From assembly GCA_964434115.1 (NCBI GenBank), contig CAYSSX010000011.1, positions 3,605 to 67,604 on the forward strand: 64,000 bases of DNA, given 5' to 3'. The stretch is from an uncultured bacterium. Lineage in GTDB: Bacteria > Omnitrophota > Omnitrophia > Omnitrophales > Aquincolibacteriaceae. This document shows positions 37,462 through 52,715 of the stretch, in pieces. How positions within the stretch are numbered: the first letter of the stretch is position 1; every line of letters begins with the position of its first letter. The position numbers and the translations under genes were made by a program. The notes under the pieces are model-generated. The model was not told the origin of the DNA. It made no database searches and saw only the letters and a list, made by a program, of their open reading frames with translations.

Positions 37462-38022
37462 TTAACGGGGTTTTTTCGGGAACACGCGAACAGCGATGTC
37501 CTTCGGAGCCTTTGCTAAAAAGCAGATTGTTTTTTTTAAGAAACCTGGCAGCCGGACCCTGCCGTTGTTCAATTCCCGAAGCCTTTTAAAAATAACATGA
37601 AGAGTCCATTCCGCGAGCGATAAAAAGCCAATCAGGCGCGACGAAAGCCTTGATCCGGCCGACGAAAAATTCACGGACTTTTTATCTCTTCGCGCCCCCT
37701 GCACAATGCCCACAAGGCTCTCCTTAAAAAATGGAGGATCCGCGACCCAGGCGTTGTCCGGCTTTGCAATCATTCCGAACTTTTCGCCGATGGGCTTTCG
37801 ATACAGAAAACGGTGAACCCAGCGATGCCCGCGCGCCGTATAGACAACAATGTCTCCCAGCCGAAGGTCCTGTGCTGAGACAGGCCGGACAAGAATTAAA
37901 TCTTCATCTTGGAGCACAGGGAACATGCATTGCCCCTTATAAATGAACCGCACAAGACCCTCGCGGGTTTCGACAGTATTAATAAGCCGCAGAGCTTCTT
38001 CCTTAATGGGGGTATCAGCCAT
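37462..38022 (-). CDS. Soluble S24/S26-type (signal-peptidase-I / LexA-like) peptidase homologue, in which the Ser/Lys dyad positions carry Cys and His
   Basis: 186 aa. KGQCMFPVLQDEDLILV aligns with SPase-I box B (G-D-S-M-x-P-T-L..GD.L.V). LGDIVVY aligns with box C (RGDIVV). RWVHRFLYRKPIGE aligns with box D (V-K-R-vIGlPGD). So S becomes C and K becomes H. There is no N-terminal TM anchor. Confidence 0.55.
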   Translation of the reverse strand: MADTPIKEEALRLINTVETREGLVRFIYKGQCMFPVLQDEDLILVRPVSAQDLRLGDIVVYTARGHRWVHRFLYRKPIGEKFGMIAKPDNAWVADPPFFKESLVGIVQGARRDKKSVNFSSAGSRLSSRLIGFLSLAEWTLHVIFKRLRELNNGRVRLPGFLKKTICFLAKAPKDIAVRVFPKKPR

Positions 38023-38087
38023 AAAATAGAACCCTTCCAGAGGTTGTAGAGATCATCGGCATCAGGTAACCTTTCTATAGGAGGGGT

Positions 38088-38438
38088 TTGAACCCTGTGG
38101 CCCGAGGGAAACGGCTGTTACCAAACCGGAACAATCCGTTGACCCCCGAAATGTGCAGAGCTAAACTGGTCTTAATGCAAATCCTTGTCGATAAAGAAGT
38201 TGTTTGCTGGAGTAAGCTGGGAGACGAAACGCTCCTGCTGAACCTTGATACAGGCTATTATTACACGCTCGATGAGCTGGGCGGCTTGATCTGGGAGATG
38301 CTGATCGAGCAGCATGATCAGGAAAAGATCGTAGAACGGATTGTCTCCGAGTACGAAGCCGAAAGAAAGTCTGTGGAAAGTGACTTGAAAACTCTTCTGG
38401 AAGAACTTCAGAGAGAGGGTATGATTGTCATTAAGTAG
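38088..38438 (+). CDS. PqqD-family protein (RiPP recognition element-like). Start uncertain among TTG 38088, GTG 38097 and ATG 38175.
   Basis: The C-terminal 88 aa, MQILVDKEVVCWSKLGDETLLLNLDTGYYYTLDELGGLIWEMLIEQHDQEKIVERIVSEYEAERKSVESDLKTLLEELQREGMIVIK, fit the PqqD/RRE pattern (..vL.N..TG.yy.LN..g..IWe.l..........l...Y.v......Dv..fl..L...GLi). It is paralogous to the gene at 48091. Confidence 0.8.
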   Translation: MNPVARGKRLLPNRNNPLTPEMCRAKLVLMQILVDKEVVCWSKLGDETLLLNLDTGYYYTLDELGGLIWEMLIEQHDQEKIVERIVSEYEAERKSVESDLKTLLEELQREGMIVIK

Positions 38439-38449
38439 GGAGGTCCGTT

Positions 38450-38563
38450 GTGGAAAACGCAGAGAAACAGGAAAAGCCCGAAAGCAATGGAAAGAAGAAG
38501 CTTTATAAGAAGCCGGCCATAAAAAAATATGAACGGCTCTATGAACCCGGAATCGGATCTTAA
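38450..38563 (+). CDS. Unannotated 37-aa basic peptide, a candidate precursor/substrate peptide of the adjacent modification system
   Basis: GTG at 38450, preceded by GGGAGG (38438-38443) with a 6-nt spacer. Translation: (M)ENAEKQEKPESNGKKKLYKKPAIKKYERLYEPGIGS, stop TAA at 38561-38563. It starts 12 nt after the PqqD stop. It is homologous to the peptide at 47852 through a shared Y-x-K-P-A-(I/L)-x-K motif. Confidence 0.6.
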   Translation: MENAEKQEKPESNGKKKLYKKPAIKKYERLYEPGIGS

Positions 38564-38598
38564 CACGCGCTTGAAAAACCCTCACTAATCCTGGGCTG

Positions 38599-40422
38599 AT
38601 GAAACCCTCTATGCCCTTCCCCCGCGTCAGTTGTATTGTTCCTGTCTTCAATGGAGAGAAGTATTTGTCCGAAACCATCGAAAGCATTCTTGGCCAAACC
38701 TACTCAAACATTGAAACTATCGTTATTGATGACGGCTCCACGGACGGCACCGCCGAAGTTTTAAAGCAGTACACTGGACGGGTCCGGGCGTTTAAACAAA
38801 ACCATTCAGGGCCTTCTGCGGCCCGGAATTTGGGCATTGAAAAATCATCGGGAGAACTCATCGCGTTTCTTGATGCGGACGATCTGTGGGCACCCGAAAA
38901 AATTCAGCAGCAAGTCGAACATCTTCAAGCTCACGCAGAACTTGATGTGTGTTTTACACAGGCCAGGAATTTTTGGATTCCCGAATTAGAGCATGAAAAA
39001 AAGAGGCTTGAGGAAGAAGGGCTCGTAAAATTTATCCACCCCTTTTTGGTCTGCACCTTCTTGGGCAGAAGAGAGATTTTTGACAAAGTCGGGATGTTTA
39101 AGCCGGAGCTTGTGATTGGCGAAGATAGTGATTTTTTTTGCCGGATGAAAGACGCGGGAATTCAAAGCGGTGTTATTTCGAAAAATTTAGTTTTCAGAAG
39201 ACTGCATGAGAGCAACCTCACCCGGAACATGTCGCTGTTCACCCGTGTGGAGCTTCAGCAGAGAGCCGCAGAGGCTCTGGGGAGGTATCGGCAAAAAGAA
39301 GCGGAGGCATCCTGCTCAGAGCAGCCCGGCAAGGCAGAAGGAAAGCCTTCGAGCCGGAAAGATGCCGATATTTTTTTTGAAGCTTTAAGCAAGGTCTATA
39401 CTCGCGCACGAAACAGCCGCGCCGGTGCAGCGGATTTTTATTATTCCATCGCCGGACATACCGTAAAACTTTGTTTTGCCGGGCCGGCACTTATTTCCCT
39501 GATGACCCCGGCACTTGAACATCTCCGAGTCAAGACACAGGAGCGCGCGGAGCTGACAATCGGCCTCTGTGATTTTGATTCTAATGACGTGGTAATGCCG
39601 GAGGTTCCTTGTACCTTTAAGGATTATACGGCGCGCCGGAAAACGACAGAATTTAATGATGATGAATACCTCCGGGCAGACTATCAAGAAAGAGCTCAAA
39701 AGCTCCACGTTCTCCACGCACAAAAAGACGAAGCCTTCTTTTTTGTAAAAAACAGCGCCTCCGTTCTCCAGGCTGATCAAGGCGCCCCGCTTGCCAAAAT
39801 TTTCCGCTGGTGGATGCGAAAAAAGGGGATCCAGCTTGTTCATGGCGGAGTTGTTGGAATGAATGGCACCGGAATTTTGCTGGCCGGAAAAGGGGGTTCG
39901 GGAAAATCGACTACAGCGCTCACCTGCCTGGCCGGAGGCATGGACTACCTAAGTGATGACTATTGCCTTGTCGAGTCCAAGCCGGTACCGGCCGCCTACA
40001 GTTTATATTGCAGCGGTAAAGTGCAGTCCAATAACCTTGACCTTGTGCCCGGGCTTTCGAAGTTAAGCAGTAAGGGCCGCCCGGATCAGGAGTCAGGGAA
40101 AACCCTTTTCTTTGTTCAGGAGCTGTTTCCTGAAAGAATAACCCGGCAACTTCTTCTTAAAGCGATTCTTATTCCCGTGATCGAAGCGCGCCCGCAAAGT
40201 GAACTTATAGGAGCATCGGCTGTCGCGGCGCTTCAGGCCTTGGCCCCGAGCACTCTGTTTCAGCTTCCCGGGTCAAAAAATAAGGACTTTTATGAGCTGG
40301 TTAAGATTGTAGAATCTCTTCCCTGTTATGTTTTCCGGGTCGGAAGCGACCCCGGGGAAGCAACGAGAATCATCCGCGAATTTTTAACCTCTCAAACGCC
40401 GGAAGCGAAGAACAAGGCTTAG
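38599..40422 (+). CDS. Bifunctional-looking protein: N-terminal GT2 glycosyltransferase fused to a C-terminal HPr-kinase-like P-loop kinase domain
   Basis: N-terminus: VSCIVPVFNGEKYLSETIESILGQTYSNIETIVIDDGSTDGT...LDADD (GT-A fold, DxD). C-terminus: LVHGGVVGMNGTGILLAGKGGSGKSTTALTCLAGGMDYLSDDYCLVE, which aligns with the HprK core (lHG..v...G.GvLi.G.SG.GKSe.AL.L...Gh.LvaDD). Confidence 0.7.
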   Translation: MKPSMPFPRVSCIVPVFNGEKYLSETIESILGQTYSNIETIVIDDGSTDGTAEVLKQYTGRVRAFKQNHSGPSAARNLGIEKSSGELIAFLDADDLWAPEKIQQQVEHLQAHAELDVCFTQARNFWIPELEHEKKRLEEEGLVKFIHPFLVCTFLGRREIFDKVGMFKPELVIGEDSDFFCRMKDAGIQSGVISKNLVFRRLHESNLTRNMSLFTRVELQQRAAEALGRYRQKEAEASCSEQPGKAEGKPSSRKDADIFFEALSKVYTRARNSRAGAADFYYSIAGHTVKLCFAGPALISLMTPALEHLRVKTQERAELTIGLCDFDSNDVVMPEVPCTFKDYTARRKTTEFNDDEYLRADYQERAQKLHVLHAQKDEAFFFVKNSASVLQADQGAPLAKIFRWWMRKKGIQLVHGGVVGMNGTGILLAGKGGSGKSTTALTCLAGGMDYLSDDYCLVESKPVPAAYSLYCSGKVQSNNLDLVPGLSKLSSKGRPDQESGKTLFFVQELFPERITRQLLLKAILIPVIEARPQSELIGASAVAALQALAPSTLFQLPGSKNKDFYELVKIVESLPCYVFRVGSDPGEATRIIREFLTSQTPEAKNKA

Positions 40423-40490
40423 AAGGTTAATTTTAAAGAGAAGCGAAAACTCAAAACGGGTACGCATCCCCGTCAGGAAAAATTTCCCAA

Positions 40491-41672
40491 ATGAACTCAG
40501 CAGATAAAAAAGAGCACTCTAAAGAAATACTGTTTATTCTCGAATGCCTTCAGTCGCTTATCCAAAACCGGGCGCCTGAGATAGACTCCCGGCGGATCAC
40601 CGGCCTCGACTGGAATCAGCTCCTCCGATTGGCCCGCGAGCAAAGGGTTCTGGGGCTTTTCGGGCATGTCCTCGAGAAGGGCGGGGCATTTCCTTTGGTT
40701 CCCGTGACGGTAAAAGAGGAAATCGAAAAAGGTGTTCATGAATACAACCAGGGCCTGCTGATCAAAAAGTGGCAATTTGGGTCCATTCACCGTTTATGCC
40801 GCGAGCAGAACCTCGAAATCATTCCTTATAAAGGCGCCGCCCTTGCGCTCACCGTTTTTAAAGACCTGCCTTTTCGCCGCATGAGCGATATTGATATTTT
40901 TATCCGTGAAAGCGATGCTGCGCGCATTTATCCGCTTTTTTTTAAGCAAGGCTTCGCAAGACTTGAAACGCCTTACCCTAACCGATGGCAGGCAGAGATT
41001 CTTCGGGGTGCTTATGCCGCCCCGTCAGGAAGAGAGTCCCTTTTTAAGCAAGGGTGGGACATTGATATTCATAGGCAAGCGAGATATCACATTGAAAAAG
41101 ATATCGTTTCGCTGGATATGCAGGACGTTTGGTCCAGAGCAAAGCCCAGGGCCACGGAGCTTGGAGAGGTCCTTTTTCTCGATGATATTGATCATACCCT
41201 GCTTTTGCTTTTTCACGCGATCGATCTTTTTGCCCCGCATTTCAGCCAGATTGTGGATACCGCCCTGCTGATGAAAAGCTCCGCGATTCGTAAAGAGGAT
41301 CTGATAGCAAGGCTCCCCGGAAACCTCGGCCCGGAGGCCAGTGCTTTTTTAGAAACCGCCAGCGATGCTATCGAAGAGTTTCTAGCGCCTCAGAAAAGGA
41401 GCGGAAATTTTTCAGAAGCAACGATCCGTTTTTTTGATTTGTTTTTTTACAAACGCAAGAGGACCTACGAAGAGCCGTTATCCAGCTCCGGCTGGAAGCG
41501 CCTTGCCAAAAGCCTAAAAGCCATACGGAGCGTTCGCGAGAAGGTGGTGTTTATCGCGGGATTTTTTGTGCCGGATCCAGAATACTACAAAAAGCAAGGC
41601 AAGAGCGGCCTCAGCAGTTACCTTCACCACTGGGGACAGCTGAGCTCGCGTATTTTGAAATCATTTAATTGA
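40491..41672 (+). CDS. Nucleotidyltransferase-family protein (PF14907-like 'uncharacterised nucleotidyltransferase')
   Basis: 393 aa. IPYKGAALALTVFKDLPFRRMSDIDIFI is the nucleotidyltransferase-fold G[SA]...D.D motif. This family is seen in lasso-peptide and other RiPP neighbourhoods. Confidence 0.55.
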   Translation: MNSADKKEHSKEILFILECLQSLIQNRAPEIDSRRITGLDWNQLLRLAREQRVLGLFGHVLEKGGAFPLVPVTVKEEIEKGVHEYNQGLLIKKWQFGSIHRLCREQNLEIIPYKGAALALTVFKDLPFRRMSDIDIFIRESDAARIYPLFFKQGFARLETPYPNRWQAEILRGAYAAPSGRESLFKQGWDIDIHRQARYHIEKDIVSLDMQDVWSRAKPRATELGEVLFLDDIDHTLLLLFHAIDLFAPHFSQIVDTALLMKSSAIRKEDLIARLPGNLGPEASAFLETASDAIEEFLAPQKRSGNFSEATIRFFDLFFYKRKRTYEEPLSSSGWKRLAKSLKAIRSVREKVVFIAGFFVPDPEYYKKQGKSGLSSYLHHWGQLSSRILKSFN

Positions 41673-41682
41673 GACCCGGTGG

Positions 41683-42624
41683 ATGATGCGTCAACAGCTG
41701 CATTTTTTGGATATTACAATTGAACTCACCGGGGCCGCCGATTCAAATTCGCGGACTCTGCTGAAAGAGCTTCAAGGGTATGGCTCAACAGCAATCCGCA
41801 AAGATGTCTCAGGAACACTGAGCATCAAAAAGGCCGCAAACTTCAGAATTCCTAAACAAGCCTGCCTGAAAGGCTTTTGGAGATCTTCGGGACTTCGGCA
41901 CTATGCCGAAACGACAACTCATTTTTGGGTTCAAGGAAAATCAGCGATTGTCAGTAATCTGCATACCCGCGGCGTTGAAATTCATTTGGGCGATAACCCT
42001 TCTGCCGAATTTATTGCCGCGGCTAGAAACGCGATCAAGTGGCTGATCATCAAGGCTGCGGAAAAATCAGGTTATGGATATGCCCATGCGGCAGCCGCTT
42101 ATTTCCGCGGGCGGAGTATTCTTCTGCCTGGAAATCCGGGCGCCGGAAAGTCCTCCTTTGTGATGCGCCTGATGAAAGCCGGAGCCGTGGTCCTTAACGA
42201 TGATGTAACCCTGATTCATCTGGGTTCTGGCCGTATGATCCCGCTGGCCCTGAACCTTCACGTTAAAGGGGATTTTTCTAAACGGTTCAATGTTTCGCCG
42301 CGCGAGCGCTGGGCATGGTTTCGCGATGAGGCGGTAAAAGAAGCCGAAAAGGTCAAAGGGGTGGATGTTATTTTATTTCCACAGGTATGGGCAGCGTCCG
42401 AGAGCCGTGTCAAAAAACTATCGCCCGAAGAAACGGAAATACGGCTGGATGGTATTTACCTGAAAGAGATGTCCTGGAACGCTTTTCCTGCTCCATCGCA
42501 AAGAATGAAATCAGCTCACCGGAAAATGATCAAGAATGCGGACAGCTATGTTTTTTACTGCGGAACACACGAAGCAAAAATCCAGAAGCGGCTGGAGAAT
42601 TTTTTGAAAAAATATGAAGAATAA
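41683..42624 (+). CDS. HPr-kinase-like (HprK-related) P-loop kinase
   Basis: YAHAAAAYFRGRSILLPGNPGAGKSSFVMRLMKAGAVVLNDDVTLI, i.e. P-loop followed by a DD motif as in the HprK C-terminal domain. Confidence 0.6.
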   Translation: MMRQQLHFLDITIELTGAADSNSRTLLKELQGYGSTAIRKDVSGTLSIKKAANFRIPKQACLKGFWRSSGLRHYAETTTHFWVQGKSAIVSNLHTRGVEIHLGDNPSAEFIAAARNAIKWLIIKAAEKSGYGYAHAAAAYFRGRSILLPGNPGAGKSSFVMRLMKAGAVVLNDDVTLIHLGSGRMIPLALNLHVKGDFSKRFNVSPRERWAWFRDEAVKEAEKVKGVDVILFPQVWAASESRVKKLSPEETEIRLDGIYLKEMSWNAFPAPSQRMKSAHRKMIKNADSYVFYCGTHEAKIQKRLENFLKKYEE

Positions 42625-43537
42625 TCAGCGTCCTTTTTTTGTTTTTCAAGGAAAGATGCGTGTTGAGGTCCTCTCAGACAGAGCTGCCGCCAGTCAGTTA
42701 AAACGGCACCAAGACGCCGGGCGGGAGGAGAGGACTTTGCTGGCCGGCCGCCTTAAAATCTATAAAGTGAGAAGGTTCACGCCGCTCAACCACCGGGCGC
42801 TGCGCGCTCACTGCAACGGTCAAACCCGCAGGGAAGAGTATGCAAAGTCCGGGACCCACACCTACTTGGCGCCCACTTTTCAAATCCGCCTCGACAAGCG
42901 GAAGAGAAGCTGCCGCGTCGAATACTTGAAATGGGACTCCCGCCTGCTTCATGAAGTCCGGCTCCTGATACGCTGGATTATGAAATCAGCGCATCTCGAT
43001 CAGGGGTGTGTTTATTTTCCGGGCATTCTGCTGGGCTCTGACGACGGTGGCGGGGTCGCTTTTACGGGGCAGCAGGAGTGTGGGATTTTGGATGCTTTGC
43101 CGCGCGTTTCAGCTTTTGGGAGGGGCCGGCCCGGCAGTTATGGTTTTATCATGAATCCGAAGTCAAAACAGATCACAGCGCTGCCTTTTCCGGGAGTCTG
43201 CAAATATGAGAGCTCCCGGGTCTATGCTGAGGCCTTGGAAAAAACAAAACAGAAGGAGGGGGAAAAGAGCCCCCGCTTCTCCAGGAGGATTGTTTTTGTC
43301 CAATCCTGGAACCGGCCGGACTCTCACCTGGGAAGTCTTTCCAGGCGTGAAGGAGTTCTAAAACTGGATGAGCTGAACCGGAGAGCTTACGAGTATTTTT
43401 TCCCCAGTCAAAGAGAGCGTCTTTTGGAGCGCTACCAAGGCATGCGGCAGCTCAGGTTTTTTCAGCTCAATCTCGGAACAGATTCCGTGAAAGCCGCAAC
43501 GCTGCTTTCACGCTTTCTGAGGGAAGGGAAAAAGTGA
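42614..43537 (+). CDS. Hypothetical protein
   Basis: 307-aa ORF translationally coupled to its neighbours (ATGA overlap). No motifs recognised. Confidence 0.4.
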   Translation: MKNNQRPFFVFQGKMRVEVLSDRAAASQLKRHQDAGREERTLLAGRLKIYKVRRFTPLNHRALRAHCNGQTRREEYAKSGTHTYLAPTFQIRLDKRKRSCRVEYLKWDSRLLHEVRLLIRWIMKSAHLDQGCVYFPGILLGSDDGGGVAFTGQQECGILDALPRVSAFGRGRPGSYGFIMNPKSKQITALPFPGVCKYESSRVYAEALEKTKQKEGEKSPRFSRRIVFVQSWNRPDSHLGSLSRREGVLKLDELNRRAYEYFFPSQRERLLERYQGMRQLRFFQLNLGTDSVKAATLLSRFLREGKK

Positions 43538-44565
43538 AAGAAACCGTTTTTTGTACTGTGGTTTCGCGAAGCTTTTTGCCTGGAGCGTTGGCGCTGTACC
43601 GATCCCTGGAAAAGCATTGCGTTGATTTGAGTTTTACAGCGCTTGTTATAGACATCCATCCGGCCGAGGCGCGCAAACTGTCCGTAAAACTGCCTTTTCA
43701 GATCCTGACTCCCGAAGCGCTTGATGCACCCGGCCTTCGCCGTCTCTGGAAATATTATTCTGTTTTTGAACTTTGCAATGTTCTACGGCCCTTTCTGATC
43801 CGGCATCTCTTGAAAAAAAAGAAGCCCAACCAAGTTATTTATCTCGACTCGGATATCTATGTAACCGGGCGTTTTGACTATATTGAGAAAAAGCTGAATC
43901 AGTACGTTTACGCCTTTACCCCCCACACGCTAAAACCTTATCCGCTGGATTCGTTCGTGCCAAACGACCTGTCTTTGCTGCACTACGGAATTTATAACAG
44001 CGGCTTTCAGGCCTATAGAAACCATCCGCAAAGCTTCAAGGTTCTTGAATGGCTGATGCCAAGGCTCATGCTTTATGGGTTCAATGATCCGCCCCGGTAT
44101 TACGTGGATCAAAAATTTCTTCCGCTGGCAGCAGCCAGTTTCCCGGAAGGTTTTTTTTGCGTGGATCATCCAGGCTATAACATTGCTTACTGGAACCTTC
44201 ACGAACGCAAAATTGAAATAAAAGCAGGCCGTTATTTTACCCAGGGCAGCCCGGCCGTTTTCTTTCATTTCAGCGGATACGATTTAAGACGCCCCGGGGA
44301 ATGGACTCAGCGGGGGAGAAAAAAAGATCCCAGCCAGCCCTCGGGGACAAGCGGGATTTCCCTGAGGAAGCCCGCAAAGCACGCGGTGCCCACGCTCGGA
44401 AAAGTCTTGGCGGAATACCGGGAACTCCTTAAGGGATGCTGCGAGGAATTGAAAGGGGAAAAGAAAGCGGAGCTGAAAAAGCAAACGAGAAATAGAAACA
44501 GGGCCAGGTTTTTTAAAGAGGAGTACCCAAAACTCCTCAAGCAAATAAATCTTTTAAAACGTTGA
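43534..44565 (+). CDS. Putative GT-A-fold nucleotide-sugar transferase (DxD motif)
   Basis: VIYLDSDIYVTGRFDYI DxD context, with its start overlapping the upstream stop. The family assignment is tentative. Confidence 0.4.
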   Translation: MKETVFCTVVSRSFLPGALALYRSLEKHCVDLSFTALVIDIHPAEARKLSVKLPFQILTPEALDAPGLRRLWKYYSVFELCNVLRPFLIRHLLKKKKPNQVIYLDSDIYVTGRFDYIEKKLNQYVYAFTPHTLKPYPLDSFVPNDLSLLHYGIYNSGFQAYRNHPQSFKVLEWLMPRLMLYGFNDPPRYYVDQKFLPLAAASFPEGFFCVDHPGYNIAYWNLHERKIEIKAGRYFTQGSPAVFFHFSGYDLRRPGEWTQRGRKKDPSQPSGTSGISLRKPAKHAVPTLGKVLAEYRELLKGCCEELKGEKKAELKKQTRNRNRARFFKEEYPKLLKQINLLKR

Positions 44566-45713: not shown

Positions 45714-46781
45714 TTAAATCGGCTCACCGGGCGAAGGAATGTTTTCTAAAAGCCCTTTTAAGGCACGCCGCTGAACAGCGCTCAAGCGCACCCCCTCAAA
45801 GATTTTTGCAGCACGCGCCAATTCAAAGTAACCTTCCTTGCTCTTTTGGGAAAAATTGAAACCGTTTCCCGTGCTGTACTTTACCGCAAGCATGGCGCGG
45901 AACGACTTTGGCTCCCGGTATTGTTTGTGGAGCGCGTTGGCATCAAAAAGGATCACGGTTCCTTTAGGTCCTACACAGTTTACAACCGGGTATTTTGACC
46001 GCACGTAAGCATCAGAATAGAGGGAATCGCTTAAACTCAAGGGAACCCTCCAGGGCCTGTGAGAGCCCTTCGCGATAAGCATGCGGACACTGCTTTCCGT
46101 GACGTCATTTAAAAAGACCAGCATCTTGAGGGTGTTAACGTTATCGCTATGCCATTCGGTTACGATTTCCTCTTCAGGGGGGGATGACGGAGCGCTTAAA
46201 GTGTTGACCACGGTAATCACCGGAAGATCCTGGACAAAGGGCTGATAGCCAAAAATTTGCCCGAGGGCCGAAAGAATCGTTTCATGGAGGGCTATTTTTG
46301 AAAAGGCTTCATCCAAAAGACTTAGGTAGCGAACCGTTAATTCTTTGACGGGTTGGTTTTTGTTCGGGACCGCAGAATAACGGTCGGCAAGTCCGTGAAT
46401 TTGATTTTGAAAATAGCCGGGCAGGATGACGAACCCATCGGATTTAAAGGAGTGTACCCAGGAGCTTATTTCTTGGTTTCGCTGAATATCAGAGGGAAGA
46501 TTTTCTGATAAGCGAAATGATTGCGGAAGGGGAAAAATCTGCCCGTGGGATAGTTTCAGCAGAAACCTTTCCGGGCGCAATAGGTTCTTTATGATAAGCA
46601 GTCCCGGGGAATCTGACCCGATGCGTTTTTCGCAGTAAAGATCCGGAGCGTTTTTTACAAGGCTGCGAGTCATCCAAGCCAGGAAGCCGCTGGTTAAACT
46701 CTTCCAGCCTCGCCGCCACAAGCGGGGCTGATGGTTAGCGATGAACCGGTACGTGTTTGCCATTTTTTTACTAAGCCGCAT
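45714..46781 (-). CDS. Putative PhyH-family Fe(II)/2-oxoglutarate-dependent dioxygenase
   Basis: 355 aa. A TEWHSDNV (H-x-D) motif and a later His-containing segment. The assignment is tentative. Confidence 0.35.
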   Translation of the reverse strand: MRLSKKMANTYRFIANHQPRLWRRGWKSLTSGFLAWMTRSLVKNAPDLYCEKRIGSDSPGLLIIKNLLRPERFLLKLSHGQIFPLPQSFRLSENLPSDIQRNQEISSWVHSFKSDGFVILPGYFQNQIHGLADRYSAVPNKNQPVKELTVRYLSLLDEAFSKIALHETILSALGQIFGYQPFVQDLPVITVVNTLSAPSSPPEEEIVTEWHSDNVNTLKMLVFLNDVTESSVRMLIAKGSHRPWRVPLSLSDSLYSDAYVRSKYPVVNCVGPKGTVILFDANALHKQYREPKSFRAMLAVKYSTGNGFNFSQKSKEGYFELARAAKIFEGVRLSAVQRRALKGLLENIPSPGEPI

Positions 46782-46798
46782 GATGGCCGCTCTTACTC

Positions 46799-47755
46799 TT
46801 AAAGGATAAAGTCATAAGCGCCCAGCCACTGGAAGACTTTGGCGCCAAACCCGCTGTAAAATCGAAATAATCCGTCGCCTCTTCCGGGCGATGAGGAGTC
46901 GGCAGCTGGACGCTGAACACCCCAAAGATCCAAAACGGAGCAGCCCGTCTTTTTTCCGAACAGCATGGCCTGCCACATCAAAGCATAGTTGACCATCGCG
47001 TTTTTATAAACCCGGCTTGAGGCGCCATGAGGAAAGTATAGCCGGTCACCCGCCTTGAAAAGCATCATGACCGCCGCCGTTTCTCCCCGGTAGGTCGCTT
47101 TAAGCAGGTGAAGCATTCCTGTGGGTTTCATGATCTTCCAAAACAAACGCAGGGTTTCTGGTGAATGAGGGTAGGCAATCCCCGCACGAACCACAGTGAC
47201 GTTGAAAAAAAGATGCAGAAACTCCTCAAAGCATTGGTCTGAGTTATCCCGGGTTACCGCGACACCCTTTCTTTCCGCGAGCCGGATATTGTAGCGGGTC
47301 TTAGAGTGCATTTTTCCAAGCAAAGCTGGATCCGGCCCTTCCAGCGAAATAAGCAGTGTGTGCTGAGGATAAACACCTCGCGAATTCAAGCCCCCCTGGG
47401 AATGAATTTTTCTTTCGATCGATCGCTTTTCGGCTTTATCAGTTGAAGTCATAGGGTAAAGCCATCCGTAGCAGGGCTCGATTTTGAGCGAAATACAGGC
47501 GTGCTTTTTCGCGATCGTCTTTAGATAGGAAATCTGTCTGCGGCCGGGAAGCGGAGCTCTTGGAACATAGGCGAGGTTGTGATTCCGGACCACGCTTTTT
47601 TGGATGATAGCCTGGACCCCGAAGCTGGGCCCGGGATCTTCTTTCAAGCGGTGCCGAATGACTTTGAACCCCAGCCTGTGACAGTAACGGCCCCATTCGT
47701 AGGTTTGGAGGGGATGAGAAACACCTTTATTGAATTGGGCCGGGGTCACGTTCAT
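46799..47755 (-). CDS. FemAB-family (FemXAB-like, GNAT-fold) aminoacyl/peptidyl transferase homologue
   Basis: 318 aa. HLLKATYRGETAAVMMLFKAGDRLYFPHGASS...KNAMVNYALMWQAMLFGKKTGCSVLDLWGV matches the FemABX C-terminal lobe pattern (...yyl.Gas....k....yll.weai.wake.G....D..G). Confidence 0.55.
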   Translation of the reverse strand: MNVTPAQFNKGVSHPLQTYEWGRYCHRLGFKVIRHRLKEDPGPSFGVQAIIQKSVVRNHNLAYVPRAPLPGRRQISYLKTIAKKHACISLKIEPCYGWLYPMTSTDKAEKRSIERKIHSQGGLNSRGVYPQHTLLISLEGPDPALLGKMHSKTRYNIRLAERKGVAVTRDNSDQCFEEFLHLFFNVTVVRAGIAYPHSPETLRLFWKIMKPTGMLHLLKATYRGETAAVMMLFKAGDRLYFPHGASSRVYKNAMVNYALMWQAMLFGKKTGCSVLDLWGVQRPAADSSSPGRGDGLFRFYSGFGAKVFQWLGAYDFIL

Positions 47756-47851: not shown

Positions 47852-47998
47852 GTGGCAAAAAAAAAATCACAATCTCCCAAGCCTAAGACTAAGCTAGCAC
47901 CGCCGAAAGGCAGGCAAAAGAGAAAACCCTATCAAAAGCCTGCGCTTGAAAAACATAGCGAAGTTCAGTTGTGGGCGTTTGGGACCATGGGCGGGTGA
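47852..47998 (+). CDS. Unannotated 48-aa basic peptide, paralogue of the 38450 peptide and candidate precursor/substrate peptide
   Basis: GTG at 47852 with AAAGGA ~8 nt upstream. Translation: (M)AKKKSQSPKPKTKLAPPKGRQKRKPYQKPALEKHSEVQLWAFGTMGG, stop TGA at 47996-47998. RKPYQKPALEKHSEV aligns with KKLYKKPAIKKYERL of the first peptide at the protein level, but with different codons. Confidence 0.6.
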   Translation: MAKKKSQSPKPKTKLAPPKGRQKRKPYQKPALEKHSEVQLWAFGTMGG

Positions 47999-48090: not shown

Positions 48091-48375
48091 ATGTATAAGA
48101 TCGATCAAAAGGCCGTTGTCTGGAAAAAAACGGAATCCGAAGTGGTGCTCCTTAATCTAAGCACCGGACACTACTACACACTCAATGCGGCAGGCCTTGT
48201 GTTGTGGGACGGAGTTCTTAAAAAGCTTTCACCCGAGAAGATCGCTCGAAAACTGGAATCAGAGTTCGAGGTGGAATACAAAACCGCCTTTAAGGACACG
48301 CTCGAATGTCTTGATCAGCTGACCCAAGAGGGAATCATCACGAGACCGCCTACGCCTTCAACTAAAAAGAAATAA
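48091..48375 (+). CDS. PqqD-family protein (second RRE-like paralogue)
   Basis: 94 aa. MYKIDQKAVVWKKTESEVVLLNLSTGHYYTLNAAGLVLWDGVL...LESEFEVEYKTAFKDTLECLDQLTQEGII is the PqqD pattern. It starts 92 nt after the peptide gene. Confidence 0.8.
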   Translation: MYKIDQKAVVWKKTESEVVLLNLSTGHYYTLNAAGLVLWDGVLKKLSPEKIARKLESEFEVEYKTAFKDTLECLDQLTQEGIITRPPTPSTKKK

Positions 48376-48393
48376 CCCGGCCGAATTCTCCCC

Positions 48394-49479
48394 ATGGTGG
48401 ATATCGTCATCGTCACTTATAATGCGCGGTCCGAGCTCATGAAATGCCTTGAGTCGGTCCGGCGTTATACGCCCGCTTCAATGTATAAATTATATGTTGT
48501 TAATAATGCCAGCAGCGACGGCACCCGCCAATATCTTGATCAAACCCGCCTTGTGAATGGTCAGTTTTTTCATCTTCCCCGGAACCTTGGGTTCTCGGGT
48601 GCAGCCAATTGGATAATCCCAAAGCTAAAATCGGCAGACGTAGTTTTTTTGGATGACGACGCCAGGGCCACCCCAGGCTGGCTTTCCGGGCTTGTCCGTT
48701 CGGTGAAAAAATCAAAAAAAACCGGCATGGTGGGCTGCAAGATTATTTATCCAGACAAAAAAATTTTTTCGTGCGAGGTTCGGTTTGGGCCGAGAAGAAT
48801 CTTATTTTTTAAAGACAGGGACCTGGGGCAGGCCGACTACGTTAAAGAAGTGGATGCTCTGGCGGGTGCCTGCTTTCTTGTCCCGCGAAAGATTTTGAAA
48901 AAAATAGGCCCCTTTGACGAAAGTTTCTTTCCCTGTCAGGGAGAAGACTGGGATTATTGTCTTCGAATCCGGAAAGCCGGCTATAAAATTATCTACAATG
49001 GCAAAGTAAGTATTATTCACAGTAATCTTTTCCGTGCGGGCGGCGAAAAAGTAAATAAAGAAAACAAAACCCGGTTCTATGAAAAGTGGAATGCGTATCT
49101 TGCTAAGCACTTTCCGCGCAAAGACAGCCACTTTGCAGACAGACTTATGTCGAAAGCGATTGCCGCGCTTGAGGCCGGCGACAGCGAAAGGGCCTTAAAG
49201 ATCTCCGGCAAGCTGGCCAAGAGCCGCCCCGAACTTGTTGAGCTGTGGGTTCCCGCGCTTGCCTATATAAGACTTCAAAATTTCAAGAAAGCCTTACCGA
49301 AGTTAAAAGAAATTATAAAAAGGAATCCGGATAACTATTCCGCACGGAGTTACCTTACCCTCTGTTTGCGCAGCCTGGGGATGAAGGGCGAAGCGGAGGC
49401 GTACACGGAGAAGATGCTTGCCTGCGTCACAAAGAACATAGACAAAAAAAGAGCCGCCGTTTCAAGGGGCAAACCTTGA
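48394..49479 (+). CDS. GT2 glycosyltransferase with a C-terminal TPR-like helical domain (SunS-like architecture)
   Basis: N-terminus: MVDIVIVTYNARSELMKCLESV...NNASSDGT...VVFLDDDA (GT-A fold, DxD). C-terminal ~110 aa have TPR-like repeats (AIAALEAGDSERALKISGKLAKSRPELVELW...LQNFKKALPKLKEIIKRNPDNYSARSYL). Confidence 0.7.
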   Translation: MVDIVIVTYNARSELMKCLESVRRYTPASMYKLYVVNNASSDGTRQYLDQTRLVNGQFFHLPRNLGFSGAANWIIPKLKSADVVFLDDDARATPGWLSGLVRSVKKSKKTGMVGCKIIYPDKKIFSCEVRFGPRRILFFKDRDLGQADYVKEVDALAGACFLVPRKILKKIGPFDESFFPCQGEDWDYCLRIRKAGYKIIYNGKVSIIHSNLFRAGGEKVNKENKTRFYEKWNAYLAKHFPRKDSHFADRLMSKAIAALEAGDSERALKISGKLAKSRPELVELWVPALAYIRLQNFKKALPKLKEIIKRNPDNYSARSYLTLCLRSLGMKGEAEAYTEKMLACVTKNIDKKRAAVSRGKP

Positions 49480-50537
49480 GCATACAACCGCTGAAGATAG
49501 AGCCTGTTTTCATTATGAGCTCAGAGAGATCAGGCAGCAATTTGCTCCGCGTGCTGCTTTCAAATCATCCGAACATTCATTCGGCGCCGGCCCCGCATTT
49601 TTTGAAGATTTTCCACACCATAATCTCATCTTATGGAGACCTGTCGGATCGAGGGAACGTCGAAACCCTTTTTTTTGACATGGCCAATTTTGTCAGTGAC
49701 GAGGGGACCGCGTGGAACACGAAGTTCGACTTCAAAACGCTCTATGAAGAGTTCAGGCCGAAAAGCTTTCTGGACTGCTTCCACCTTTTTTACACGGTAA
49801 ACACCCGCGAAAGCGGGAAGCAGAGATTTGTTGTGAAAGAAAACAACCTTTTCGATTTTGCTTTCCAGCTTGTTCATTATTATGGATCGCCTAAGTTTAT
49901 ATACTTGTACCGGGACCCGAGAGACTATGCCGCATCCTGGATGCGGCTGTCCCACAATACCTTAACGCCCTATGCGGCCGCGGTAAGATGGGCGTACGAA
50001 CAGGAAAAGTGCCTTGAGCTGATGGATGGATTCGGTCTAAAGGCTTTTCCAGTTAAATACGAGGAGTTGATTACAGATACGGCTCAGGTGATGAGTGGTG
50101 TGCTCCGGCATCTTGAGGAGCCGGATACCGATCTTTGCTGCCAGGTAGACACCCGAAAAACAGCGTGCTTTGCCTGGAACGAGAGCTGGGCCAACATCGC
50201 GCAGCCGGTCCTCAAAAACAACAGCGGCCGATACAGGTTTTTTTTGAAGAAAAAAGATATCCTGATCATTGAGAGTGCGGCTAAAGCGCCGATGCTGAAA
50301 CTGGGGTACGCGTTAGAAACCCGGGCTGACTGGAAACCTTCCATGGCGTTCCGGTGGACAGAGAAGGTGCGCGGCAGAATAAAGCGCTTTCAGGCTTCAG
50401 TGAATCGAAACAGAACAAAGGATTTCTTAGACATGAAAAAAAATCTGGTGGAAAGCATCCGCGCGCGGCAGCGTGGTTTGGCTGACAGCAGCGCCTCCCG
50501 CGGCGGGACTCGAAATCCTGGCGGAGGGAAGGCGTGA
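49476..50537 (+). CDS. Sulfotransferase-family protein
   Basis: PVFIMSSERSGSNLLRVLL is a 5'-PSB-like motif (P.F.I.G..RSGTT) and RDPRDYAASWMR is 3'-PB-like. The start overlaps the upstream stop. Confidence 0.65.
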   Translation: MSIQPLKIEPVFIMSSERSGSNLLRVLLSNHPNIHSAPAPHFLKIFHTIISSYGDLSDRGNVETLFFDMANFVSDEGTAWNTKFDFKTLYEEFRPKSFLDCFHLFYTVNTRESGKQRFVVKENNLFDFAFQLVHYYGSPKFIYLYRDPRDYAASWMRLSHNTLTPYAAAVRWAYEQEKCLELMDGFGLKAFPVKYEELITDTAQVMSGVLRHLEEPDTDLCCQVDTRKTACFAWNESWANIAQPVLKNNSGRYRFFLKKKDILIIESAAKAPMLKLGYALETRADWKPSMAFRWTEKVRGRIKRFQASVNRNRTKDFLDMKKNLVESIRARQRGLADSSASRGGTRNPGGGKA

Positions 50538-51517
50538 TTAAAAAAATATTCACGACAGCTTACCTGCGTATTGAACTTCAAACAAACTCCCGCCAGGTTG
50601 CAGCTCTGTTAAGCCGGTCGATGAGTTTTGGCGTCCGGCCGGAGAAAAGCGCCGTGAAAATTTCCTTCTTTATTACGCACGTCCCCAAATCAAGTTTTGG
50701 AGATGGCGATTATTCCTACCACCGCTTGCGCAGCAGGGAAGGGATCGCCACTCGCCTTCATCATGGATGTTTGGCCTCAGTGTCGGTTGATGAGAAAAGA
50801 ATGAGGGTTACGGGTGCGGTTTATGATTTGAAAGAAAAACACCATCCGCGTCTCGCTCAAACACTTTTTATCGACCCCCTTATTCAGCTGCTCAGCCTTC
50901 ATGGCTACCAGTTTCTCCACTGTGCACTGATCGAGAAGGGCGGCGAATGCGTTCTTGTATCGGGGCCGTCTGGAAGCGGTAAGAGCACCCTGTCTTTAGC
51001 CCTTGCCATGCACGGAGCAAAGCTGCTGACCGACGACAAGTGCCTTTTTAGATTTAACCCGGAAGGGGGCTGTACATTTTTGGCGATGCGGCAAAGCATT
51101 GGTGTTCAGCCGCATCTCTGGAGAAAATTTTCAGCGATAAGAAAATTTCCTTCAGAAATCGATTGTGACGGCAAGCGAAGGCGTATCCCGGCAGACTCTT
51201 TTGGGAAACAGTCCGCCGATCAATTTAAGTTTGCCCCCAAGGCGATTCTTTTCCCGAAGTTCAGAAAAGGCGGGAAGGTTAGAATGAAAAGCCTTTCCGC
51301 CAAAGAAGCACTTAAACGTCTGTGGGCCGACAAAAGCAATGCCTGTAATGCGGGGCGAAACAAGAAAAGTCTTAGCGAAGCCCTTTTCAGCCTTCATCAG
51401 CTGACAAAACAAACCCCGGCTTACCAGGTTTTTTATAACGATCCAGAGGTTGGAAAAATCGGAAGCCTTGTGGAGCCTTTGTTTGCGGGCCGCGGCCAGT
51501 TTCATGAATCCCGGTAA
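50534..51517 (+). CDS. HPr-kinase-like (HprK-related) P-loop kinase, the third in the locus
   Basis: FLHCALIEKGGECVLVSGPSGSGKSTLSLALAMHGAKLLTDDKCLF. GTG start overlapping the sulfotransferase stop. Confidence 0.6.
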   Translation: MIKKIFTTAYLRIELQTNSRQVAALLSRSMSFGVRPEKSAVKISFFITHVPKSSFGDGDYSYHRLRSREGIATRLHHGCLASVSVDEKRMRVTGAVYDLKEKHHPRLAQTLFIDPLIQLLSLHGYQFLHCALIEKGGECVLVSGPSGSGKSTLSLALAMHGAKLLTDDKCLFRFNPEGGCTFLAMRQSIGVQPHLWRKFSAIRKFPSEIDCDGKRRRIPADSFGKQSADQFKFAPKAILFPKFRKGGKVRMKSLSAKEALKRLWADKSNACNAGRNKKSLSEALFSLHQLTKQTPAYQVFYNDPEVGKIGSLVEPLFAGRGQFHESR

Positions 51518-52484
51518 AACCTTCTTTTCAGGCCGGGCCGATTCCCCGGAACTCTGGCGAAAATTTATTGACCCCGCGGATTGGTCCGAAGCGGTAAGGC
51601 AATTCCCCAGCGCCCCCTGGAAGCTTTATTTGATGCCCGCAGGGCAGTACACCCCCAAAGAGTGGAATCATTTTAAGCGGGCTGTGCGCTGGGTCTGGAA
51701 AAAGGCCGCGGAGAACCGGAGCCAGAGGCGTGAAAAACTTTCGGTACGGGATCTATTAAAAATCAATGCCCTTGTTATCTTTGGGGATTCCACCCTTTGG
51801 CGGAAAACCTTGCGGAATAACCGGCCGATTTTCAATTACCGGACGACTGAGGAAATCCTGCGGGTTTATGAGAGCGGTTCATGCCTTTACCGCAATGGTG
51901 ATGGACTTCCCTTACGCATTGATGGATTTTGGCCCGCCGAAGCAGCCTCCCTGGATTTTTTTACCTGCTGCAGGGCGCTTGCAGCGACGCCTTTTGATAA
52001 AAACCCCAAACAATGGGAAAAGGTTCTGCGGCATTTCAAAACCTTGCTTCATCAGAAAGTCTCAGGACGCGGTGAAAAATGGCAGGTCTACTTTACGACG
52101 AGGCGCAAAGACCTGATTAAGCAGCTGGAAATTATTTTGGACTGGTATCAGGCGCAAGCGAATCGTCTTCTTGCCGCCCAGGAAAGCGCAGGCTTTCACC
52201 CTCGTGAGGTCCTTGAACTGGCAGTCAAAATGCAGCGCTACGTTGACATGACCCAGTTCTGTATGGATGGCTCCGGCAGAACAAGCAAACTGGTTCAGGA
52301 GTATATTTTTCTGCGTTTTGGGTACTTCCCCCCAAAGCCCGTTTATTATGAGGCGTACCGGCGAGGCTGGGAAAATGGCACTTACCTCCCATTAAAGAAA
52401 GCGATCCAGATGCAGCGGCGAGGCTGGACGGCTGTTCGGCTAAACAGTCCGGGCAAGCGCCCAGCCAAAGGCCGCTCGGATTGA
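51504..52484 (+). CDS. Hypothetical protein (the start is probably the ATG at 51504, not 51450)
   Basis: ~326-aa ORF, last gene of the co-directional block. No confident motif. Confidence 0.4.
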   Translation: MNPGKTFFSGRADSPELWRKFIDPADWSEAVRQFPSAPWKLYLMPAGQYTPKEWNHFKRAVRWVWKKAAENRSQRREKLSVRDLLKINALVIFGDSTLWRKTLRNNRPIFNYRTTEEILRVYESGSCLYRNGDGLPLRIDGFWPAEAASLDFFTCCRALAATPFDKNPKQWEKVLRHFKTLLHQKVSGRGEKWQVYFTTRRKDLIKQLEIILDWYQAQANRLLAAQESAGFHPREVLELAVKMQRYVDMTQFCMDGSGRTSKLVQEYIFLRFGYFPPKPVYYEAYRRGWENGTYLPLKKAIQMQRRGWTAVRLNSPGKRPAKGRSD

Positions 52485-52700: not shown

Positions 52701-52715
52701 ACTTTGCAAGTTCAT

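Follow-up and report, generated by a model that had tools for sequence, protein, structure and literature searches.

Linear polyphosphorylated peptides (LPPs), described through LppA, LppK, LppB, LppS, LppD and LppN of Paenibacillus alginolyticus, are called restricted to Bacillota in the paper that reports them (Popov et al., Nat Commun 2026, May 2026; PMC13381572). Biochemistry in that system demonstrates peptide phosphorylation by an enzyme set homologous to the one considered here; 18 residues separate Tyr-16 of LppA from Ser3, which is the sole phosphorylation site, and LppK rejected Thr as a substitute for Ser3 (PMC13381572). Crystal structures show the [Y]xxPx[L/I] motif docking into lasso and LPP RREs.

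HprK-like kinases are also found in the paeninodin and pseudomycoidin pathways (PadeK, PsmK/PsmN), where they act on the C-terminal Ser of the linear precursor. A PF14907-type nucleotidyltransferase adds a hexose to the phosphate, and some of these clusters carry a sulfotransferase gene. Mycofactocin biosynthesis (MftA-F, MftM) modifies a precursor of ~30 aa at its conserved C-terminus and involves a PqqD-like chaperone, a peptidase, a GT2 and a sugar methyltransferase. A pairing of a PqqD chaperone with an HprK-like P-loop protein, predicted and uncharacterised, is further represented by the NCBIfam 'HPr-rel-A system' (TIGR04352, HprK-related kinase A; TIGR04353, PqqD chaperone; TIGR04355, HprK-related kinase B) and by ScmC/ScmD of SynChlorMet.

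Gene content and relation to LPP clusters

The locus lies within a 64 kb stretch of DNA from an uncultured Candidatus Omnitrophota bacterium (the window). Besides two PqqD-family RRE proteins and several glycosyltransferases, it encodes a PF14907 protein, a FemAB-like protein, a sulfotransferase, a protease resembling signal peptidases and three kinase domains of the HprK-like P-loop type. This content, largely proposed in the original prediction, was confirmed by Pfam and NCBIfam profile calls, and the Fic-fold, PhyH-like, GT4, GT8-like and NanM-like methyltransferase genes, missing from that earlier list, also belong to the locus. The genes form two modules, A with pepA and B with pepB, the latter adding the sulfotransferase and an orphan Fic-fold protein. 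The features are as follows.

36446..37444, + strand: NanM-like putative sugar O-methyltransferase, 332 aa (TIGR04371 66.4 bits, above the cut-off of 44)
37462..38022, - strand: signal-peptidase-I-like (SEC11/SipW/LppS-type) protease, 186 aa (Peptidase_S24 24.8 bits; sigpep_I_arch E 4e-10)
38175..38438, + strand: RRE 1, discrete lasso-type PqqD family (PF05402 59.5 bits; lasso_PqqD_Bac 60.9 bits)
38450..38563, + strand: pepA, candidate 37-aa precursor MENAEKQEKPESNGKKKLYKKPAIKKYERLYEPGIGS, RRE motif YKKPAI, C-terminal Ser37 (Tyr+18) being the predicted modification site
38599..40422, + strand: GT2 (residues 1-230) fused to an HprK/PEPCK-like P-loop kinase domain (residues ~270-600), predicted to be bifunctional (Walker A GKGGSGKST, then SDDY)
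40491..41672, + strand: PF14907 (NTP_transf_5) nucleotidyltransferase, counterpart of LppN/PsmN (PF14907 104.6 bits)
41683..42624, + strand: stand-alone HprK-like P-loop kinase, 313 aa (HprK_rel_A E 4.8e-10, 39 bits against a cut-off of 200)
42614..43537, + strand: 307-aa protein with no Pfam/NCBIfam match
43534..44565, + strand: GT8-like putative glycosyltransferase, 343 aa, weak assignment (Glyco_transf_8 E 0.0099, below its cut-off)
44537..45664, - strand: GT4-type glycosyltransferase, 375 aa (Glyco_trans_1_4 42.3 bits)
45714..46781, - strand: PhyH-like putative Fe(II)/2-oxoglutarate dioxygenase, 355 aa (PhyH E 8.6e-4, below its cut-off)
46799..47755, - strand: FemAB/GNAT-like transferase, 318 aa, transcribed divergently from pepB (FemAB 58.6 bits; Acetyltransf_6 48.9 bits)
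47852..47998, + strand: pepB, candidate 48-aa precursor MAKKKSQSPKPKTKLAPPKGRQKRKPYQKPALEKHSEVQLWAFGTMGG, RRE motif YQKPAL, Thr45 (Tyr+18) being the predicted modification site
48091..48375, + strand: RRE 2, discrete lasso-type PqqD family, 94 aa (PF05402 51.1 bits)
48394..49479, + strand: GT2 with a C-terminal TPR region, 361 aa (Glycos_transf_2 72.5 bits; TPR matches over residues 238-346)
49476..50537, + strand: sulfotransferase, 353 aa, or 340 aa from a later start (Sulfotransfer_3 72.2 bits)
50534..51517, + strand: module B HprK-like P-loop kinase, 327 aa (HprK_rel_A 56.8 bits; Hpr_kinase_C 24.8 bits; Walker A GPSGSGKST, then TDDK)
51504..52484, + strand: orphan Fic-fold protein, 326 aa (Gln251 at the position of the family's Fic catalytic His)

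The earlier description of neighbouring genes as overlapping or abutting was loose, because gaps reach 68-92 nt.

The core gene set matches the set that defines LPPs, and the locus is related, distantly and with unusual features, to the 'linear polyphosphorylated peptide' pathway. The original interpretation is partly supported: the assignment to ribosomal-peptide modification (RiPP-type) instead of primary metabolism is supported, while the label 'apparently undescribed' is superseded, the same core having been published as the LPP family of Bacillota (PMC13381572). Overall, a two-module, RRE-dependent RiPP-type locus that shares ancestry with the phosphorylation machinery of LPPs and paeninodin-type peptides is the probable reading, and its enzymes most likely phosphorylate and glycosylate the two small conserved peptides. 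As in LPP clusters, a discrete lasso-type RRE adjoins a signal-peptidase-I-like protease that is of archaeal type and anchor-less, and the locus encodes an HprK-like kinase and a PF14907-type NTP transferase. The leader likewise has YxxPx(V/L/I) and a hydroxyl residue at +18, with position +8 taken by His or an aromatic residue and +11 by a hydrophobic one; the locus and the LPP clusters also do without a lasso cyclase and are set among polysaccharide-biosynthesis genes. In contrast to LPP clusters, the phylum is Omnitrophota, the precursors possess next to no core, module A joins its kinase to a GT2 in one protein, the protease carries Cys instead of Ser as its nucleophile, an MsbA-like exporter is missing from the window, and the sulfotransferase, GT2-TPR, FemAB-like, PhyH-like and Fic-fold proteins are additional.

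The two candidate precursors

Directly observed are the genes and their folds, the fact that the peptides exist and are conserved, and the motif with its spacing. Each short ORF adjoins one RRE gene, and both are genuine genes, recurring in syntenic loci with mostly synonymous changes towards the C-terminus. pepB is present again in two related loci (L004 and L006); over the final 24 codons, 8-15 differences are synonymous and 1-2 non-synonymous, the encoded 24 residues are nearly invariant, and DNA conservation drops away 3' of the stop codon. The pepA family comprises seven members in six loci, each located between, or adjoining, the RRE and GT2-kinase genes and preceded by a Shine-Dalgarno-like site. 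All seven end G-[ST]-stop at Tyr+18, with the final residue varying only between Ser and Thr. The proposed homology of the two ORFs was also borne out: when the pepA and pepB family HMMs were compared with the 923 ORFs of the window, the other peptide was the best non-self match (E 0.005 and 0.097), and a MAFFT alignment places the two families in register.

Several of these features favour an LPP-related, RRE-dependent system, namely the conserved G-[ST] ends, the purifying selection, the invariable company of RRE, protease and GT2-kinase, the lasso-type RRE-binding motif YxKPx(L/I) common to both peptides, and the Ser or Thr exactly at Tyr+18, which reproduces the spacing to Ser3 in LppA. 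Counting against it, an LPP-precursor HMM gave no significant match to pepA or pepB (E 2-7), and the FET cleavage motif and QSWN motif (FET↓xQSWN in LPPs) and the long Gly/Asn-rich LppA core are absent from both. The precursors, at 37-48 aa, end 0-3 residues past the modification site, as opposed to the 45-residue core of LppA. Ser/Thr interchange at the predicted site, pepB and several pepA copies having Thr, is a further departure from LPPs and also weighs against the relationship.

The same peptides bear on whether this could be an ordinary surface-polysaccharide locus in which sugars or lipid carriers, and not the products of the short ORFs, would be the substrates of the PqqD, HprK-like and PF14907 proteins. 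Such a locus would fit the flanks, where glycosyltransferases are numerous and ABC-2 (Wzm/Wzt-like) transporters occur as two pairs, and the occurrence in the broader family, across many phyla, of GT2-HprK fusions and PF14907 proteins without a discrete peptide gene. However, the peptides are conserved, under selection and equipped with an exact RRE-binding motif beside RRE and enzyme genes, peptide binding is the sole known role of RREs, and the homologous LPP enzymes phosphorylate a peptide (PMC13381572), making this explanation quite improbable. The surrounding glycan-biosynthesis genes, as reported for LPPs, count for the LPP-related reading.

Conservation in the peptides is the inverse of that in typical RiPPs, with an invariant C-terminus and an N-terminus that is free to vary. 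A disposable scaffold or primer, on which a phospho-glycosyl (methylated or sulfated) small molecule or glycan would be built and then clipped off following PQQ, mycofactocin or pearlin logic, the product not being a bioactive peptide, deserves some consideration but is unlikely. The near-invariant C-termini would mark pepA and pepB as scaffolds, and the few residues beyond the modification site, the kinase-fused GT2, the several glycosyltransferases, the sugar-O-methyltransferase-like protein, the sulfotransferase and the glycan-biosynthesis neighbourhood point the same way. The mycofactocin gene set is also similar in its short precursor, conserved C-terminus, PqqD-like chaperone, peptidase, GT2 and sugar O-methyltransferase-like protein. 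Unlike mycofactocin, the locus has no homolog of the radical SAM protein MftC, of MftD or of MftE, its chemistry appears centred on a kinase, and the window GT2s match the MftF model weakly (59-68 bits against a cut-off of 280). No radical-SAM or other residue-excising or rebuilding enzyme is encoded within the locus, and the retained composition of the N-terminal halves argues that the whole peptide may be functional. These halves are basic in both peptides.

RREs, kinases and protease

Both PqqD-like proteins exceed the PqqD cut-off (PF05402, 23.4 bits), in agreement with their proposed role as RREs, and share 39% identity. Although the longest RRE 1 ORF begins at 38088, Met at 38175 is the likely start, orthologs beginning at the equivalent Met. 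BLASTP similarity of RRE 1 to LppB (30% identity, E 5e-9) supports the LPP relationship; among PDB entries, RRE 1 matches TbiB1 (2e-12), PbaB1 (2e-9) and LppB (6e-4), and the proximity of the RREs to generic lasso B1 proteins such as TbiB1 and PbaB1 rather than LppB tells against it. This best match to lasso B1 models and structures, together with an enzyme set corresponding to the tailoring enzymes of paeninodin-type clusters, could suggest a degenerate or split lasso cluster with cyclase and B2 protease encoded elsewhere. That explanation is highly improbable: as originally claimed, no Asn-synthase-like cyclase or transglutaminase-like B2 protease ORF occurs in the whole window, nor in seven related loci, and since the peptides end 0-3 residues past Tyr+18, a 7-9-residue ring with an acidic acceptor is impossible. 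Paeninodin and pseudomycoidin clusters differ accordingly in having a macrolactam cyclase, a B2 cysteine protease and a possible lasso core, and paeninodin leaders typically carry Trp where the motif here has Tyr (PMC13381572).

The LPP-related reading draws further support from the kinases. Three HprK-like P-loop domains are present as predicted, one of them being part of the GT2 fusion protein and not a separate kinase; the fusion protein has an HprK/PEPCK fold, the kinase domains retain Walker A and the downstream DD, and paeninodin-type HprK homologs phosphorylate a C-terminal Ser. The HprK-like matches fall short of curated cut-offs, which counts against it. The database association mentioned in the original prediction exists in name, in that NCBIfam contains 'HprK-related kinase A/B' and an 'HPr-rel-A system PqqD family peptide chaperone', but the window proteins match these and SynChlorMet partially, scoring far under the family cut-offs (39-57 against 200, 20 against 35, 25 against 125), and the radical SAM/SPASM partner is absent here. 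The 41683..42624 kinase is a paralog of the two other kinase domains and lies within a four-gene insertion that L004 lacks. Weak similarity of the adjoining 307-aa protein to its C-terminus (E 0.002) suggests that this protein could be a kinase paralog that has degenerated and lacks a P-loop. A search of 5.8 billion proteins returned only nine homologs of the module B kinase. Bona fide HPr kinases are ruled out (TIGR00679 20-29 bits against a cut-off of 240; no ptsH nearby).

The protease, a predicted leader peptidase, lacks an N-terminal membrane anchor and has Cys32 in place of the catalytic Ser, with His70 and Asp95 completing the predicted triad. It aligns end to end with LppS (BLASTP E 4e-12; Cys32/His70/Asp95 corresponding to Ser29/His68/Asp93), in favour of the LPP relationship, and in the match of a three-ortholog profile to SEC11A (E 2e-5) the Cys falls on Ser56. 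The Cys is kept in six of six orthologs of its clade, more distant relatives having Ser.

Proposed pathway and tailoring enzymes

All of the chemistry, including where cleavage would occur and in which order the steps would follow, is inferred from homology to LppK, PadeK, PsmN and LppS. The discrete PqqD-type RREs would each bind YxKPx(L/I) of the adjoining mini-precursor and offer the hydroxyl 18 positions downstream (the C-terminal Ser/Thr of pepA; Thr45 of pepB) to an HprK-like P-loop kinase, which would phosphorylate it. A sugar could then be added to the phosphate or hydroxyl, candidates being the kinase-fused GT2, the GT2-TPR protein, the PF14907 nucleotidyltransferase and the other glycosyltransferases, and be decorated by the sulfotransferase and NanM-like O-methyltransferase. 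The LppS-like Cys protease might cleave a short distance before the modified residue, the predicted position being just behind the small residue at Tyr+15, and so release a very short modified C-terminal fragment. A product of 3-6 residues would be unprecedented for such an enzyme set, which counts against the scheme; the peptidase may therefore cut elsewhere or not at all.

The PF14907 gene is conserved in L004, L008 and L100, and in L099 the protein is fused to an ABC exporter upstream of the same operon; this fusion ties the family to LppN, LppD and export and favours an LPP relationship. LppN showed no activity in the published system (PMC13381572), which counts against it, as do the missing catalytic His of the Fic-fold protein and the lack of an MsbA-like exporter in the window. 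The proposed SunS-like identity of the GT2-TPR protein found no counterpart in TIGR04195 (no match; 26 bits for the other GT2 against a cut-off of 350), leaving the glycocin analogy without sequence support. The PhyH-like and FemAB-like genes are conserved members of module B, with the former at the same position and the latter syntenic in L004 and L006-L008. The NanM-like gene is an optional member of module A, adjoining the peptidase gene in L009 and L092-L095 and absent in L010, L098, L099 and L100.

Gene content and genomic setting of the locus

The open reading frames (ORFs) of 35–54.5 kb were listed and scanned against Pfam and NCBIfam, and the scan upheld the gene list of the original prediction. 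The locus encodes two PqqD proteins (PF05402; 59.5 and 51.1 bits, cut-off 23.4), three HprK-like P-loop domains, a PF14907 nucleotidyltransferase (104.6 bits), a Sulfotransfer_3 protein (72.2 bits), a FemAB/GNAT-like protein, a GT2 glycosyltransferase with a C-terminal TPR region and a Peptidase_S24 or archaeal-type signal-peptidase-like protein. Further members are a NanM-like sugar O-methyltransferase (above cut-off), a GT4 protein, a weak GT8-like protein and a weak PhyH-like protein. Two ORFs of the locus have no family match in either database. No Pfam or NCBIfam match was obtained for ORF 42614–43537 (307 aa), a member of the locus with weak similarity to the C-terminal end of the kinase next to it, or for ORF 61883–63568 (561 aa). 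The locus is bounded by a tRNA-Arg gene (52715–52790) and, relative to the related locus L004, contains a four-gene insertion (41683–45664). Promoter-like sites occur at chance level in the window, and no operon boundaries can be derived from them.

The presence of mnmG, yidC, dnaA (11499–12914), dnaN, gyrB, gyrA and serS in window positions 1–21000, together with a GC skew that turns from negative values to positive ones at about 12 kb, indicates that the window covers the chromosomal origin region. At 90% identity, the GyrA of the window clusters with a protein named as Candidatus Omnitrophica/Omnitrophota. Upstream of the locus lies a glycan-biosynthesis block (24653–33390) composed of GT4, GT2, GT4, a 582-aa TPR protein, a Wzt/Wzm-like ABC pair, a Nucleotid_trans protein and GT2. 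In two related loci from other genomes (L010 and L100) the same block directly abuts the protease gene, so that the TerC/LemA/TPM genes at 33.5–36.4 kb represent an insertion in the genome of the window. A pure polysaccharide locus, a reading that would accommodate the glycan block and the glycosyltransferases, would have to account for the conserved peptide genes and RREs described below and is judged very improbable.

Several described classes were considered. No Pfam or NCBIfam match to an Asn-synthetase-like cyclase or a transglutaminase-like B2 protease was found among the ORFs of the locus and the other large ORFs of the window, as had been predicted, and neither gene occurs in the related loci; a lasso cluster is rejected on these grounds. 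A glycocin cluster is likewise rejected and the proposed SunS likeness is not borne out, the test against the SunS family model (TIGR04195) having been negative. The prediction that the kinases are not genuine HPr kinases holds: they score 19.7–28.7 bits against TIGR00679 (cut-off 240), and no PTS genes are present among the window ORFs examined.

Short peptide genes and their RREs

Two short ORFs flank the discrete PqqD-family proteins, RRE 1 (38175–38438) and RRE 2 (48091–48375):

38450–38563, pepA, 37 aa, between RRE 1 and the GT2-kinase gene
47852–47998, pepB, 48 aa, 92 nt upstream of RRE 2

The kinase of the pepB module has only nine homologs among 5.8 billion proteins. The two homologs on long contigs (66–67% identical) are fully syntenic, and in both of them the ORF in the same place ends in the 24 residues of pepB, KPY(Q/R)KP(A/V)LEKHSEVQLWAFGTMGG. 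The last 24 codons of pepB show 8–15 synonymous differences and only 1–2 non-synonymous differences, the N-terminal half is free to change yet Lys-rich throughout, and the similarity of the DNA drops sharply directly 3' of the stop codon. Orthologs of the GT2-kinase fusion (40–54% identity) led to five further loci, each with an ORF of 37–39 aa between the RRE and the enzyme genes. One of the related loci (L100) carries two pepA-type genes in tandem (3672–3951) ending in GLGS and GLGT, respectively, so that a single cluster uses both Ser and Thr at the terminal position. The seven members of the pepA family, including the window copy, share the consensus Y-x-K-P-x-x-K-K-[YF]-[ED]-R-[LI]-Y-E-x-G-x-G-[ST]-stop, and an SD-like site precedes every one of them. 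A metagenome scan for RLYEPGxG[ST]-stop returned only the organism of L009, one of the related loci, and three chance matches.

The recurrence of the short ORFs in syntenic loci and the synonymous excess over the last 24 codons of pepB confirm the proposal that they are real genes, and a chance-ORF reading is rejected. Their proposed homology is also supported. In a MAFFT alignment pepA and pepB are in register, with K, Y, K-P, K and G invariant and followed by Ser or Thr, and in reciprocal HMM searches of 923 window ORFs each is the best non-self match of the other (E-values 0.005 and 0.097). On this comparative evidence, pepA and pepB are genuine and mutually homologous genes. Both contain YxKPx(L/I), an instance of the [Y/W]xxPx[L/V/I] motif by which the leaders of lasso and related peptides dock into discrete RREs in crystal structures (PMC13381572).

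The best solved relatives of RRE 1 are the lasso B1 proteins TbiB1 (2 × 10−12), PbaB1 (2 × 10−9) and TfuB1 (1 × 10−6), followed by LppB (9x8z_B; phmmer E-value 6 × 10−4, pairwise E-value 5 × 10−9 at 30% identity), the RRE of the linear polyphosphorylated peptide (LPP) system. Despite this resemblance to lasso B1 proteins, the absence of cyclase and B2 protease genes leaves a split lasso cluster hardly credible.

A broader family, found in many phyla and taxa including Bacteroidales, cyanobacteria, Acidobacteriota, Chlamydiae, Planctomycetota, Roseobacter and Abditibacterium, consists of PqqD proteins of 140–200 aa with a C-terminal tail. The tail bears a strongly conserved motif, [FYW]xxPxLxK[YF]xDMxDLLLLDPIHEVDExGWP, which amounts to an RRE-binding-like motif joined in cis to the RRE. 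The PqqD protein is followed by proteins of the HprK-like, GT2 and PF14907 types, with neither a discrete peptide gene nor a protease. Copies of this PqqD-tail protein are found in the following loci of other genomes:

L011, 8312–8773
L014, 420–890
L017, 5483–5929
L018, L020, L023, L024, L027, L028, L031, L035, L038, L045, L055 and others

No description of this family was found. A scan of genome contigs, a set outside which the species of the window falls, returned mostly members of this family or GT2-only matches. Its identification with the HPr-rel-A system of Haft is rejected since its proteins score far below the cut-offs of TIGR04352, TIGR04353 and TIGR04355. The window proteins likewise stay under these cut-offs (39.0, 56.8 and 26.6 bits against 200; 20.3 against 35).

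Relationship to LPP clusters

LPPs were defined in Bacillota by Popov et al. (Nat Commun, 20 May 2026; PMC13381572), which overtakes the description of the present system as apparently undescribed. LPP clusters are without a lasso cyclase and are located in capsule loci. Their core comprises LppS, an anchor-less archaeal-type signal-peptidase-I homolog (Ser29/His68/Asp93), the discrete RRE LppB, the HprK-like kinase LppK, an MsbA-like exporter and the NTP transferase LppN, which was inactive in the authors' host. The precursors bear YxxPxVLxHQxIxFETxxS; LppK polyphosphorylates core Ser3 and LppS makes an RRE-dependent cut after Thr-1. The single published system halted at the polyphosphorylated intermediate, no end product or function is assigned to LPPs, and the family was termed 'restricted to the Bacillota' (PMC13381572).

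Comparison with the LPP proteins, using sequences from the Supplementary Data of PMC13381572, identifies counterparts of most core components. A discrete lasso-type RRE is present, although TbiB1 and PbaB1 score above LppB, as are an HprK-like kinase and, as the PF14907 protein, an NTP transferase; the equation of LppN with PF14907 draws on work on paeninodins and is not stated in the LPP paper. An LppS-type protease is also present (37462–38022), divergent from RRE 1 at a distance of 65 nt and matching LppS with a BLASTP E-value of 4 × 10−12 over 125 residues, but its Cys32/His70/Asp95 lie opposite Ser29/His68/Asp93 of LppS. A profile of three orthologs matches human SEC11A (E-value 2 × 10−5) and aligns the Cys with the catalytic Ser56. 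The Cys is kept in all six proteases of the clade (window, L009, L010, L098, L099 and L100), whereas Ser occupies this position in LppS, a Schekmanbacteria homolog and a deltaproteobacterial relative (L013). The Cys-for-Ser swap within the SEC11/SipW signal-peptidase-I fold is clade-specific, suggesting that this fold can carry Cys at the predicted nucleophile position; we know of no described Cys-type member. When homologs of the protease were sought by a word-indexed search, two proteins alone were retrieved.

Two LPP features differ. No ABC_membrane-type exporter corresponding to LppD was found in the locus or the window, in which the ABC genes are ABC-2 pairs only (29574–31901 and 53958–55657). 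In L099 a 959-aa PF14907-ABC_membrane-ABC_tran fusion (148–3027) immediately precedes the RRE-peptide-protease-GT2/kinase operon. Moreover, pepA and pepB have neither the full LPP precursor motif nor a long variable core. With the LPP precursor they have in common only Y, P, hydrophobic residues at +5 and +11, His/Tyr at +8 and Ser/Thr at +18; the FET and QSWN motifs and the 45-residue core of LppA are absent, the peptides ending at +18 to +21, and an LPP-precursor HMM gives no significant match (E-values 2.1 and 7.1). The register nevertheless coincides: Tyr-16 and Ser3 of LppA are 18 residues apart, and Ser/Thr stands exactly at Tyr+18 in pepA, where it is the last residue, and in pepB, where the three residues MGG follow. 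At +15, the LppS cut position in LppA, each of the three peptides has a small residue: LppA has Thr, pepA has Gly and pepB has Ala.

The locus is real, conserved and of RiPP type. As a clearly divergent variant of LPP clusters, from a phylum new to them, it extends the LPP-type family beyond Bacillota. It departs from the described clusters in its unusually minimal precursor, fused kinase-glycosyltransferase, Cys protease and additional sulfotransferase and Fic-fold components.

Proposed pathway and accessory proteins

The precursor comprises a recognition motif and a putative modified residue and nothing more, and the kinase is physically fused to a glycosyltransferase. The stripped precursor would fix the predicted modification site by register at Tyr+18 and, together with the fusion, points to a conserved chemistry in which glycosylation follows phosphorylation. 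According to an earlier review, the HprK homologs of the paeninodin type act on the linear precursor, phosphorylating its C-terminal Ser, and the pseudomycoidin nucleotidyltransferase adds hexoses to the phosphate of its precursor.

Upon the established genes, folds, motifs and conserved positions, a pathway can be proposed in which each chemical step is drawn from homologs. The RRE would dock the YxKPx(L/I) motif of the peptide, the HprK-like kinase would phosphorylate the hydroxyl residue at +18, the GT2 enzymes and the PF14907 protein would add sugar, the methyltransferase and the sulfotransferase would decorate this sugar and the Cys-type LppS-like protease would clip near +15/+16, the predicted cut lying after Gly34 in pepA and after Ala42 in pepB. 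This general model is considered likely, with much lower confidence in its details. That the peptide acts instead as a scaffold or primer, a reading compatible with a precursor ending at +18 to +21, is unlikely. A more specific and rather doubtful version takes pepA and pepB as minimal disposable scaffolds, on which an RRE-guided phospho-glycosyl group is built at the terminal Ser/Thr and O-methylated or sulfated, the protease then freeing a 3–6-residue fragment or the peptide priming a sulfated glycan. If this were true, pepA and pepB would not be antimicrobial-peptide precursors, and the product of the LPP-type enzymes would be a small glycophospho-metabolite or a glycoconjugate with a ribosomal template, in a phylum whose bacteria are ultra-small and may depend on hosts. 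For the likely pathway of docking, phosphorylation and glycosylation, the related loci L009, L098 and L099, in which the minimal module is self-contained and consists of RRE, peptide, protease and GT2-kinase, offer a four-gene system with a 37-aa peptide for reconstitution.

The family of ORF 51504–52484 has the consensus H-[FIV]-x-x-D-G-S-G-R-T with the spacing of the Fic motif, and Gln replaces the Fic His in this ORF and its closest orthologs, so that it is assigned from its motif as a Fic-fold protein whose putative activity is uncertain. A Fic fold would be consistent with the theme of the locus, the transfer of phosphate-containing groups to hydroxyls, and the assignment draws an orphan Fic-fold family into a peptide-modification locus. 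The family has only 17 representatives among 1.84 billion proteins; one member (P0177) comprises 1659 aa. In L009, an Exo_endo_phos protein and a PLD-family protein (11821–14091) lie co-directionally 3' of the GT2-kinase gene; both belong to phosphodiesterase families and may be candidate members of the pathway.
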